NCBI GenBank assembly: GCA_963835065.1 | Contig: CAWIEK010000069.1 | Coordinates: 1 to 43,141 of the forward strand | Source: an uncultured Chthonomonadaceae bacterium | GTDB taxonomy: Bacteria; Armatimonadota; Chthonomonadetes; Chthonomonadales; Chthonomonadaceae | Length of the DNA: 43,141 nucleotides | Reading direction: 5' to 3' | In this document: positions 35,483 through 40,935 of the stretch, one piece after another | Position numbering within the stretch: the stretch's first letter is position 1 | Layout: every line of letters begins with the position of its first letter | The notes under the pieces: model-generated | Told to the model about the DNA's origin: nothing | The model's database searches: none | The model's input: only the letters and a program-made list of their open reading frames with translations | Translations under genes and position numbers: made by a program

Positions 35483-38477
35483 ATGACCGACACCACCCAT
35501 GACAGCGCGGCACAATCCCATGCCGCCACAGCCGCCACCGACACTCCTCTGAGCGACAGCACAATTGACAACCCCGCTGCCGCACAGGACGCGCCGGACG
35601 CCACAGCCGCAGGAACCGCCCGCGCCGAACTTCCCAAAGCCTACGATCCCAAAGAGGTGGAAGGCAAATGGTACGAATTCTGGCGGGGCGCGGGCGTTTT
35701 CCACGCCGAACCCGACCCGAACAAACTTCCCTACTGCATCACCATTCCGCCGCCCAACATCACGGGCAGCCTCCACATGGGCCACGCCCTGAACAATTCC
35801 GTGCTGGATACCATGACGCGCTGGCATCGGATGCGCGGCTACAGCGCCCTCTGCCTGCCCGGAACCGACCATGCGGGAATCGCCACTCAAAACGTCGTGG
35901 AGCGCGAACTTGCCAAGCAGGGCATCTCGCGGCATGACCTGGGGCGCGAAAAGTTCATAGAGCGCTGCTGGGAGTGGCGCGAACAGTACGGCAACCGCAT
36001 CTATTTTCAATTCGAGAAACTCGGCTGCTCCTACGATTGGAAGCGCGTTCGCTTTACAATGGACCCGTCCTATGTGGACGCCATCATGGAGGAGTTCGGC
36101 AGATGGTTCGAGCGCGGCCTGATTTACCGGGGGCTGCGCGTGGTGAACTGGGACGTGAAGTTCCAATCCGCCGTGTCCGACATCGAAGTGGAAACCAAAG
36201 AAGTAAAGGGCAAGCTGTACCATTTTCGCTACCCCTTTGCGGACGGAAGCGGGCATATCACGATTGCCACCACGCGCCCGGAAACCCTGCTCGGCGATGC
36301 GGCCGTTGCCGCCAACCCGAACGACGAGCGTTACCAACCGCTGTTCGGCAAAATGCTCAAACTGCCGCTCACCGACAGGGAAATCCCGCTCATCGCCGAC
36401 GACTACGCCAAGCCGGAATTCGGTTCGGGCGCGGTGAAAGTGACGCCCGCCCACGACCTCAATGACTACGAGGCCGGGCTGCGCAACAACCTGCCGCAAA
36501 TCGTGGTCATCGGCAAGGATGGCAACATGACCGCGCTTGCCGGCCCGAACTACGAGGGCTTGGGCCGCTTTGAAGCGCGTAAAAAAGTGGTTGCCGACAT
36601 GGAAGAATTGGGCTTGGTGGAAAAGATTGAAGACTACACCATTCAGCAGCCAATTTCCGAACGCTCCAAGGAAGTGATCGAACCCCTGCTTTCGGAACAA
36701 TGGTTCGTGGACATGAAGCCGCTCGCCAAGCCCGCCATTGACGCGGTGAAGCAGGGCAAAATCCGCTTCATTCCCGACCGTTACGAGGGCATCTACCTGT
36801 ACTGGATGGAAAACATCCGCGACTGGTGCATCAGCCGCCAACTGTGGTGGGGGCATCGAATTCCGGTGTGGTGGACGGAAATAAATGCTGAACGAGGAGT
36901 GATGAATGATGAATTAGAATCCCATTCATCACTCATCACTCATCACTCATCATTGCCGAATGTGCGAACATTCGGCAACCGCCGCTACACCTTCGCCCGG
37001 ACGCGGGAGGAGGCGGAGGCGAAGTTGGGCACAGCCAATTGCTGGCAGGATGAGGACGTGCTGGATACGTGGTTTTCGTCCGCGTTGTGGCCGCTTGCCA
37101 CATTGGGATGGCCGCAGGATACCGCCGATCTGCGCTATTTCTATCCGACCAATCTGCTGTCTACCGCGCAAGAGATTTTGTACCTGTGGGTAGCGCGTAT
37201 GATTATGTGCGGATTAGATTTTGTGGACGAGATTCCGTTCCGGGATGTGTACATTCACGCTACGGTGCTGGACGAGCAGGGGCGGCGCATGAGCAAATCG
37301 CTCGGCAACGGCATTGACCCCATTGACCTGATTGACAAATACGGCGCGGACGCCACCCGCTTTTCACTGCTGCAACAGGCGGGCAAAAATCAGGACATCA
37401 AGTACAGCGAACAGCGCACCGACATTGCGGGCAACTTCTGCAACAAATTGTGGAACGCCAGCCGCTTCGCCCTGATGAATCTGGATGAGGACACGACGGG
37501 CGAACTCCCCGCGCCCCACGAGCGAACAAGCGCGGACCGCTGGATTCTGTCGTCCCTGCGCGACGCGATTATCGCCGTAAACGAGAAACTAAGCACCTAC
37601 GACATGGACGACGCTACCCGCGTGTTGTACGACTTCTTCTGGAATGACTTCTGCGACTGGTATGTGGAAATGGCGAAGCCGCGCCTCCGCGCCGAAGGCG
37701 AAACCCGCCGCATAGCCCAAAACATGCTGGCCTACACGCTGGAAACAACCCTACGCCTCCTCCATCCCCTCATTCCCTTCATCACGGAAGAGATTTGGCA
37801 GGCATTGCCGCAGAATCAGGGAACAGGGAACAGGGAACAGGGAACAGGAGAGAAGACAGAAGACAGAAGACAGAAGACAGAAGAGGATACCCTATCAACT
37901 ATCAACTATCAACTATCAACTATCTGCCTGGCTCCTTATCCCGAAGCGAAAGATACGGAAGGCTGGCAGGATGCGGAGGCGTGTCGGACGATTGCGTATA
38001 TGATTGCGGCGACGCGGGCTATTCGCAACATGCGGGCGGAACTTGGCATTGCGCCGAGCGTGCGAATAAAAGCGGCAGTCGTGGCTTCGCAGCCGGAGGC
38101 GGAAACCGCGCTGCGCGAAAACGGCGACTTGATCGTGGATTTCGGCGCGTTTGGAGGCTACGCCAAGTCTGCTGACGGCGGCTCCTTCACCGGAGAACGG
38201 GCAGGCGGGAAAATGGATCGGGACGCCGACGGAAGGCATGGAGGTGTTTCTGGAAATCGGCGATGCGCTGGACATGGACAAGGAACGCGCCCGTATCCGC
38301 AAGGAACTGGAAGCGGTCGGCAAGGAAATCGAGCGGGCACAGGCCAAATTGAGCAATGCCAGTTTTGTGGAACGCGCCAAACCCGAAATCGTAGAGGAAG
38401 AGCGGAAGCGCCTGTCCGATTGGCAGGAAAAGCGCGGCAAACTGGAGGAACGGCAGAAGTTGTTTGAGGAAAGTTGA
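35483..38477 (+). CDS. valS: Valine--tRNA ligase with two in-frame repeat-derived inserts (frameshift near 38143)
   Basis: PPPNITGSLHMGH, DHAGIATQ, ATTRPET, DWCISRQLWWGHRIP, DVLDTWFSS and RMSKS; the C-terminal coiled coil (KLSNASFVERAKPEIVEEE) lies in a shifted frame. Confidence 0.98.
36883..36952 (+). repeat. 70-bp hairpin module inserted in-frame in valS
   Basis: Encodes NAERGVMNDELESHSSLITHHSS; 68/70 identical to the reverse complement of 40281-40350. Confidence 0.93.
37817..37924 (+). repeat. Composite heptamer insert in valS: (GGGAACA)n-(AGACAGA)n-(TATCAAC)n
   Basis: Encodes QGTGNREQGTGEKTEDRRQKTEEDTLSTINYQLSTI between EEIWQAL and CLAPYP. Confidence 0.93.
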
Positions 38478-38479
38478 GG

Positions 38480-38574
38480 GTTGATAGTTGATAGTTGATA
38501 GTTCATGCTACGGCAAATATGCTGGCAATGGGCACAAGCATTAGGAAGATGCAGGGAACTATCAACTATCAACT
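38480..38574. repeat. Palindromic heptamer element (GTTGATA)n-loop-(TATCAAC)n
   Basis: Fills the gap between the convergent stops of valS and the M48 gene. Confidence 0.9.
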
Positions 38575-39482: not shown

Positions 39483-39551
39483 GAAATCACGCCGAAATTA
39501 TGTTCGAGGCATCAACAATATAACCAACCACCAGCCACCAATTTCTATCAA

Positions 39552-40935
39552 CTACGAACTATCAACTATCAACTGCTTACTTCGCCCCTGATGTTCGGCA
39601 AAGGCTTTGGCGCGCAGTTCGACATAACGTTCCACGCGGTTGAGGGCGAATCCTGCCCGCCCCGGCAATTCTCCCAAACCGCCCAACTTTTCATGCGAAC
39701 GCAGCAGCAGCAGGCGGTGATTGACGCGCTCTTCGGGCAGCCAGCGATATTTGTAACCCTCGTTGCCGCGCAAAAAGTCGAACTCCGTACAGCCTTCTTC
39801 GATGGCCTGCCGAATTGCTTTGCCGGTCAGCAGCGTGCCCAAACTGTATTTGCTGAGTTCCGGCGCGAACCCACCCAAATAATAGAATGTGCGCCCGCCC
39901 CACATAAAGCAGTACAAGGCGGCGCGAATGGTTCCGTCTACAGTGAGCAGATGCAGGCGCAGCCAATCGCTTGCCAAAAACGCGCGGGCGACATCGCGGT
40001 GAAACGCCTGTACGCGCTTGCTTCCCAACACCCCCGGCAGCCAGCGCGCGTTCCAGCGTTTCTGGTGCAAATCAAACAACGCCGTCATTCCCGCTTCCAA
40101 TGTCTGCTCATCGGCGCAATGAAAGCGTACATTTTCAAACGTTTTATCCAGCAGGCGTTCATAGTAGCCCAGATTGGAGCGCATTTTTTTACTCAGCCGC
40201 GCCGTCAGCGTCTTCCAATCCGCAGGCAACGTCAGATACGGACAAGGCTCCATCGGCAAGGAGGTTGAGGGGGAAGAAAGTGATGAGTGATGAGTGATGA
40301 GTGATGAATGGGATTCTAATTCATCATTCATCATTCCGCGTTCAGCATTTCCTGCTGTTCCCTGTTCCCTGTTCCCTGTTCCCTGTTCTTATCTCTTGAC
40401 CCCTGACCCCTGACCCCTGACCCCTCTGCTGCGTCAGCAGCGGACAATCGGCGCGTAATTGCTGCAAGTCGGCCATGTCCCAGCCGCGCAATTCTTCCCG
40501 GATGTAATGGCAGAGGGCGTGGGCGGCGGCGGCTTCCCATTCGGGCAGGACAAGCGGGCCGAGATAATCGCTTTGCCCGGTTCCGATCCAGGCGAGGCGT
40601 CGCAGGGGCGTTCCTAAATGAAAACTGGTGTAAAAGGGCGCGATCCCAATAAGGACTTCGGCACGGGAACCACTATTTTGCTGAAATGGCGTGGATACCG
40701 CCGGCTCAACAAGAAAGGCCGCTTCGCCATCTGTGCCGCGTGTTGCCGCCTCCGCCGCAGACGCCCAAAACAACAGGATACGGGGGCGCTTACGCGCTCC
40801 AAAATGCCGCCACCAGGCCGCGTTCCATTCCCACGTTTGGAACGGCGTTGCCTGCGGGCATTGCGCTTGAAGCGCGCGCCACTGCCGCTCCAGCGTATTC
40901 AGAGCCTCACGCTCACTGATTTCCACGATCCTCAA
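39552..40935 (-). CDS. GNAT family acetyltransferase (CelD/BcsL-like), split inside a repeat insert
   Basis: N-half TPFQTWEW..AWW.HF...GIAPF...SDYLG; C-half LFDLHQKRW...YYLGGF...YSLG...FDFLRGNEGYKYRW. The frame break lies within the 40279-40425 repeat block. Confidence 0.88.
40279..40425 (-). repeat. Composite heptamer insert in the GNAT gene: (GGGGTCA)n-(GGGAACA)n-70-bp module
   Basis: Directly visible tandem units; includes the module shared with valS. Confidence 0.93.

Follow-up and report, generated by a model that had tools for sequence, protein, structure and literature searches.

In-frame heptamer hairpins of an uncultured Chthonomonadaceae bacterium: repeat sites that are kept while their contents are exchanged

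Paired tandem hepta- and octanucleotide repeats were described in Geobacter metallireducens, where they were read as regulator binding sites (Aklujkar et al. 2009, PMC2700814). Here we analyse a window of 43,141 nucleotides from an uncultured Chthonomonadaceae bacterium (contig CAWIEK010000069.1, hereafter C69, of an 8.0-Mb assembly in 71 contigs), in which a heptamer hairpin of about 70 bases, hereafter the module, lies within both valS, which encodes valine-tRNA ligase, and a gene for a GNAT acetyltransferase. We favour, with moderate confidence, the reading that the module belongs to a class of hairpin cassettes without coding capacity that are copied whole over or into resident hairpins and that, within genes, are translated as a floppy loop. 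The valS–GNAT pair itself is a typical, ordinary instance of a widespread, little-studied repeat class.

The available text of the Geobacter account describes 3–5 tandem units of 7 or 8 bases per site, opposite-strand pairs at variable distance and several families per genome; the repeats are multicopy and lie between and within genes, one four-heptamer family among those found within genes. The Chthonomonadaceae repeats are alike in all these respects. The same text reports a proBA spacer that is filled by a different conserved sequence in a sister species. The consensus units that it quotes differ from those of the module, and, as far as that text goes, a frame rule, a counted retention of sites with swapped content and a link to cargo genes are found here only. 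Paired arrays were thus already known from Geobacter; what is new here is how the elements move, with counted evidence for replacement at fixed slots.

Two other systems are close in part. The TAACTGA heptamer arrays of Beggiatoaceae were proposed to be mobile without a mechanism, in a paper whose available sections state that the spread of short heptamer repeats through bacterial genomes is unknown (MacGregor 2015, PMC4679880). As in those arrays, one orientation closes all three frames and the other is translatable; the Beggiatoaceae arrays are mostly single, direct and intergenic or at protein ends, whereas those described here are inverted pairs with conserved loops and occur in the middle of an essential gene. 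Rickettsia palindromic elements (RPE; Ogata et al. 2000, 2002) are dispersed palindromic repeats that lie in frame in unrelated genes, according to the accessible part of a later account (PMC10969869). At the protein level the module is RPE-like, being a palindrome in frame in unrelated genes with a recurring peptide, but it is shorter (∼70 against ∼150 bases) and differs from what that part describes in its tandem-heptamer build, its many interchangeable families and its sites that are kept while contents swap. Further heptamer simple-sequence repeats, the cyanobacterial STRR and SDR elements, were reportedly described by Elhai et al. in 2008. Rfam gave no family at gathering score in the window, and a literature search, with subscription journals mostly outside its coverage, brought up no paper in which slot replacement or the link to cargo genes is described.

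The module and its reading frame

Direct comparison of the copies in valS (36883–36952, forward strand) and in the GNAT gene (40281–40350, reverse strand) gives 68 identical bases out of 70. As stated in an earlier reading of the letters (hereafter the sequence-only reading), both copies are sense to their respective host genes, NAERG(V/M)MNDELESHSSLITHHSS is the sole stop-free frame when all six are checked, and the module folds as a hairpin (valS copy −24.9 kcal/mol, z −4.5; GNAT copy −17.3 kcal/mol, z −2.9). It is built of two inverted arms of four heptamers each with an 11-base loop between them, and its two settings are as follows.

36884–36954, forward strand: hairpin element in valS, with a four-heptamer left arm, an 11-base loop and a four-heptamer right arm
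40279–40425, reverse strand: composite block of repeats inside the GNAT gene, with a GGGGTCA array, a short linker, a GGGAACA array and then the valS-type hairpin (40281–40349)

The core of the valS element (36885–36953) has 69 bases, i.e. 23 codons, with the in-frame reading NAERGVMNDELESHSSLITHHSS; the leading part of the module consists of two degenerate heptamers. The sequence-only reading took parts of the module to be non-repetitive, concluded from this shared unique sequence that the module was recently copied as a unit, and regarded the pair as the best evidence that these repeats are mobile. These parts are not unique, as the leading 12-mer occurs 23 times in the genome and the loop 10-mer five times, and the argument is weak because those bases run through the whole subfamily. 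Copying as a unit stands on other grounds, namely whole elements with long unique loops elsewhere in the genome (see below), which are better evidence of mobility than the pair. The nearest relative of the valS copy is the GNAT copy, while that of the GNAT copy is a copy on contig C63 (69/70), ahead of the valS copy (68/70). A direct copy between valS and GNAT is possible, and low divergence makes recent copying plausible without dating it. Among the 31 genomes searched, the 70-mer is present in two: the source genome and its congener G002.

An arm-pair scan found 118 copies of the hairpin with four heptamers in each arm, mostly 69–75 bases long. Seventy of them form a stop-free subfamily, in which the second heptamer has no stop codons. 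Exactly one of the six frames, the NAERG frame, is open in 69 of these 70 copies, and no frame is open in any of the other 48. All 34 copies counted as in-gene by a strict test use the NAERG frame and strand, and the frame common to valS and GNAT therefore reflects a filter, since only one of the six is open. Coding sequence in the sense direction is present on both flanks of 57 of the 70 stop-free copies, and copy length is divisible by three in 64 of them against 30 of the 48 others (p=1.7e-4); a Fisher test of subfamily against in-gene status is circular and was not used. An 11-base loop with few variants is common to 45 stop-free copies. Antisense RNA folds more strongly than sense in 68 of 70 stop-free copies against 26 of 48 others, although this bias counts as one observation and is no proof of selection because the copies have a common ancestry. 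From the frame rule, it seems likely that a module within a gene is translated as a floppy extra protein loop.

The genome as a whole contains 2372 period-7 arrays. Its repeat blocks number 2079, and no fewer than 203 of these are in frame in genes. The stop-free left arm is matched by at least 120 metagenome stretches, and this variant is old and widespread. A Chloroflexota genome has this left arm too, read in the same frame, within a long open reading frame (ORF; L151:401–470). Several paralogues, at C2:19566, C16:38392 and C53:147587, 285981 and 535223, have related hairpins at one and the same loop, which follows an ‘ELLDWLA’ motif; they are putative DUF1553 genes. Hairpins of other 7–10-base families lie in the window at 23372–23677, 24173–24287, 27530–27664 and 33307–33427, the second and fourth of these having arms in common.

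Copied elements and exchanged contents

Near-identical whole elements with unique loops of 50–60 bases occur between unrelated flanks (e.g. the C3 pair, identical at 118 of 119 bases and 3.9 kb apart). Best matches lie within 10 kb in 17 of 358 cases, compared with 1.1 expected and a maximum of 5 in 200 shuffles; these near matches represent nine distinct pairs, in both orientations, of which eight are bounded by the arm tips.

We then compared the sites with those of G002, over 1.2 Mb of its 7.5 Mb. Arrays fill 27 of the 31 in-gene sites that could be mapped, 24 of them with different units only, compared with none of 152 control coding sites. Among the other (not in-gene) sites, 30 of 43 are filled, 29 with different units. 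Reverse mapping placed 25 of the 32 in-frame G002 blocks; 24 of these 25 are filled in the source genome, 20 with different units. The window itself provides examples. Aligning ValS orthologues, as the sequence-only reading had proposed, places the module in a length-variable loop across 30 ValS loci. Both valS loops have different repeat units in congeners G001 and G002 (the second loop also in G003) and are plain in most other relatives. The GNAT 70-mer is the core of the larger composite block, and other units occupy the same site in G002. Besides the two blocks given above, those concerned are:

37813–37927, forward strand: second in-frame valS block, with GGGAACA and GAAGACA left arms and a CTATCAA right arm; mosaic, with non-complementary arms
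41516–41632, forward strand: in-frame repeat block of the same class in the neighbouring GalU-like nucleotidyltransferase gene; other units in G002

Co-assembled haplotypes give a second comparison. Among 83 haplotype block pairs, 71 differ at no more than four positions, three by one unit and three in flanks only. Content is changed in six pairs (three wholly; the other three have a related core with changed arms), and an empty allele is found in none of the 83. The pair C8/C23, which could not be cleanly parsed in detail, is counted among them. Within one gene at C32/C63, one haplotype has a copy of the valS/GNAT module and the other a different block. A single intergenic site has a 121-base hairpin in one haplotype (C37:183104–183224) and a 588-base element with a four-helix-bundle gene in the other (C25:13980–14567).

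These comparisons bear on whether any sequence passes between loci. Old insertions could instead be altered in place, their arms by slippage and hairpin-templated correction, and their likeness could arise by convergence; the one-unit length differences and the changed arms around related cores (three haplotype pairs each) are of the kind that such a process would produce. Against this are unique 50–60-base loops common to elements with unrelated flanks, the 11-base loop of the stop-free copies with its few variants, and a slot that alternates with a 588-base gene-bearing element. We consider it highly unlikely that in-place change explains the data by itself; as the sole process it is largely refuted by the whole-element copies, and it probably acts alongside copying.

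The second question is whether the copies enter new sites. Flanking repeats of at least four bases, taken as target duplications, are present in 5 of 118 elements compared with 2.7 expected, and repeats of at least five bases in none. With its terminal inverted repeats and lack of coding capacity, the module is like a miniature inverted-repeat transposable element, but it is unlike one in having no target-site duplication, the 118 elements showing no excess over shuffled flanks. HUH/Y1 enzymes leave no target duplication. A transposase of this type, acting in trans, might insert whole hairpins at new sites and hit tolerant loops and spacers repeatedly. Consistent with this are the copies that end at arm tips, the preference for nearby sites, some orthologous G002 sites that are empty and four PF01797 (Y1-transposase) matches in the genome. 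Independent hits should rarely coincide, yet most mapped sites are common to the two genomes in either direction of mapping and none of the controls is; no haplotype allele is empty; and none of the four PF01797 or two reverse-transcriptase (PF00078) matches is enclosed by arms (DDE families were not searched). Nor does the module have the GTAG or CGTC end tag that the available text on REP/REPIN elements describes (PMC3733652), and the Y1 (RAYT) genes are not enclosed by these arms. We therefore regard insertion by such a transposase as unlikely, while noting that a transposase aimed at resident hairpins would merge this explanation with the one we prefer. The ‘transposition or gene conversion’ of the sequence-only reading can be narrowed accordingly: the data agree far better with replacement at filled sites than with insertion into new ones, because target duplications are lacking, congeners have sites in common with swapped contents and no haplotype pair has an empty allele.

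Host genes, reading frames and the assembly

The host genes, and the base that interrupts one of them, are:

35417–38477, forward strand: valS (valine-tRNA ligase); an extra base at 38143, not present in contig C43, shifts the C-terminus
39552–40935, reverse strand: CelD/BcsL-type GNAT acetyltransferase gene, which appears as two ORFs in the window; its 3′ half contains PF13480
40390, reverse strand: extra base breaking the GNAT frame in the window, missing from haplotype C43

Contig C43 repeats window positions 34600–43141 with 98.6% identity and 20 gap positions, and it therefore represents a second haplotype in an indel-prone assembly. It contains the module at both the valS and the GNAT sites, with one extra base in the valS module. 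Both insert sites in valS are in stretches that do not align with the Thermus thermophilus ValRS (between chain residues 418–441 and 695–706); when ValS was modelled with AlphaFold on a 10-row alignment, the mean predicted local distance difference test (pLDDT) value was 41.7, which is too low for judging the inserts. Three contigs from three runs cover 38072–38335 with one gap each.

The sequence-only reading had itself named an assembly chimera as a danger, and a chimera or collapsed repeat could have placed the 70-mer at both loci. The assembly is indel-prone with duplicated haplotypes, and no independent contig bridges the GNAT junctions by at least 31 bases (run X1, a possible source sample, was left out of the independent runs). 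However, the two bases that differ between the copies are each repeated in C43, a contig of run X4, from another study, is gap-free from 36484 to 36945 and so crosses the valS left junction deep into the module, and a contig of run X3 extends 22 bases into the GNAT module. A chimera is barely credible on this evidence, and none is seen at valS.

The sequence-only reading also placed the module in the same frame in both genes. For GNAT this holds in C43, where the gene is a single open frame of 476 amino acids running through the module. In the window, the 5′ half of GNAT is out of the module frame because of the one extra base at 40390 and stops at 40342–40344, inside the module. This base probably reflects an indel error of long reads. 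Position 40390 is not bridged by any contig of runs X1, X3, X5 or X6, so the GNAT frame is taken from haplotype C43 and from relatives, most of which, like C43, have the gene unbroken as one frame. GNAT is shifted inside the repeat block in both the window and G002, and programmed frameshifting or phase variation may be considered; the shift is, however, in line with the rate from assembly error, as frames are shifted at 3 of 31 in-gene blocks in G002 against a background of 11 of 152 control sites.

The same shifts could mean that the hairpin is removed or skipped before a protein is made, by RNA excision as in rRNA intervening sequences, by splicing or by ribosomal bypass. It would also suit this explanation that the larger versions encode a protein of the 23S rRNA intervening-sequence family, as the available part of one account describes it (PMC4990558). 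Against this, the copies within genes all belong to the stop-free subfamily, are always read in its sole open frame and mostly have a length divisible by three; GNAT is in frame in C43, and the G002 shifts at blocks equal the background. We rate removal or skipping as very improbable.

Other features lie further from the module. A CRISPR-like array at 1–300, with five ∼30-base repeat copies at 63–69-base spacing, is cut by the contig start and has no Rfam match at gathering score. Inverted copies of a ∼300-base dispersed repeat, which has many copies in the genome, are located at 782–1084 and 17748–18048. The dnaK gene (25516–27150, reverse strand) is without the first ∼100 profile positions, probably owing to another indel, and an opposite-strand PF10712 match there is a dnaK shadow frame. 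A DEAD/DEAH helicase gene with an MrfA-type zinc domain (6628–11026, reverse strand) adjoins a TPR/DUF7017 gene and consists of two overlapping ORFs, a split that may be an indel.

Gene-bearing elements and the mode of copying

All three PF05635 genes and all three PF13366 genes in the genome lie between inverted 7–9-base arms, as judged by eye, and the flanks of three of these cargo elements are protein genes. Across the order, 15 of 24 PF05635 genes pass a strict arm test compared with none of 288 control places. Full-length GxxExxY genes have arms matching at 18 or more of 20 positions in all 10 examples examined, out of 15 loci and with no control run. The cargo proteins pass TIGR02436 and TIGR04256; a match to Avd is weak and below cut-off. 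As far as the available text on 23S rRNA intervening sequences goes (PMC4990558), the cargo versions alone resemble these in having a four-helix-bundle ORF enclosed by a long stem, and a large element likewise takes the place of a small hairpin at a site that is conserved. Unlike them, the cargo elements have protein genes on either side and arms made of tandem repeats; the miniatures are in frame, and the 70-base module itself carries no ORF.

Under the explanation that we prefer, a donor element, often within 10 kb, would be copied into a resident hairpin or array in a conversion-like event. Leftover arms would then decay by slippage into mosaic blocks such as that in GNAT. Selection would remove products that close or shift the frame, and for this reason genes would keep the stop-free subfamily alone, in a single orientation and frame. 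The larger versions, with a four-helix-bundle or GxxExxY gene in the loop, are putative suppliers of the activity; the idea that the copying is driven by their proteins is a guess based on position alone. A more specific proposal is a system in which elements with four-helix-bundle (Avd/S23-like) or GxxExxY nuclease-like genes, together with the miniatures, recognise resident hairpins by shape and overwrite them. We put this forward tentatively and consider it rather doubtful.

Several observations weigh against the copying of whole hairpins over resident ones and their translation in genes. (i) When the stop-free subfamily is taken by itself, near copies do not resemble each other significantly more than far ones do (11 against 957 pairs, p=0.21). 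(ii) No array was detected in G002 at 4 of the 31 in-gene and 13 of the 43 other sites, and valS loops are plain in distant relatives, so insertion at new sites, or loss, also occurs. (iii) At five cleanly parsed swapped sites, flank identities are 92.6–96.8% on one side and 97.6–99.7% on the other; ordinary recombination with a more distant relative may therefore have brought in the alleles, and the swaps, which are undated, may predate the strains. (iv) PF05635 has no match in G001 despite its repeat-filled valS loops, although GxxExxY genes are present there. (v) Both the source and the G002 assemblies are indel-prone, and the counts take in a few haplotype duplicates. (vi) The driving enzyme is only putative, and translation is argued from the frame rule. 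(vii) The stop-free variant is not everywhere a coding specialist. Of the at least 120 metagenome loci, 80 were examined and 18 discarded as short or duplicate, and only 2 of the 62 scorable loci are open through in the NAERG frame; the stop-free variant was thus not made for coding, and the idea that its heptamer evolved for coding was rejected as a general account.

The genome makes the spread of such repeats testable, as it combines sites that persist, contents that swap and the alternation of gene-bearing and miniature versions at one site. If hairpins are indeed copied over resident ones, 203 or more protein loops of a single bacterium are rewritten repeatedly, and the two small families of proteins without known function that mark the large versions would gain a job. 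If resident hairpins are, moreover, recognised by their shape, new peptides would be written time after time into thousands of fixed slots, some of them loops in essential proteins.

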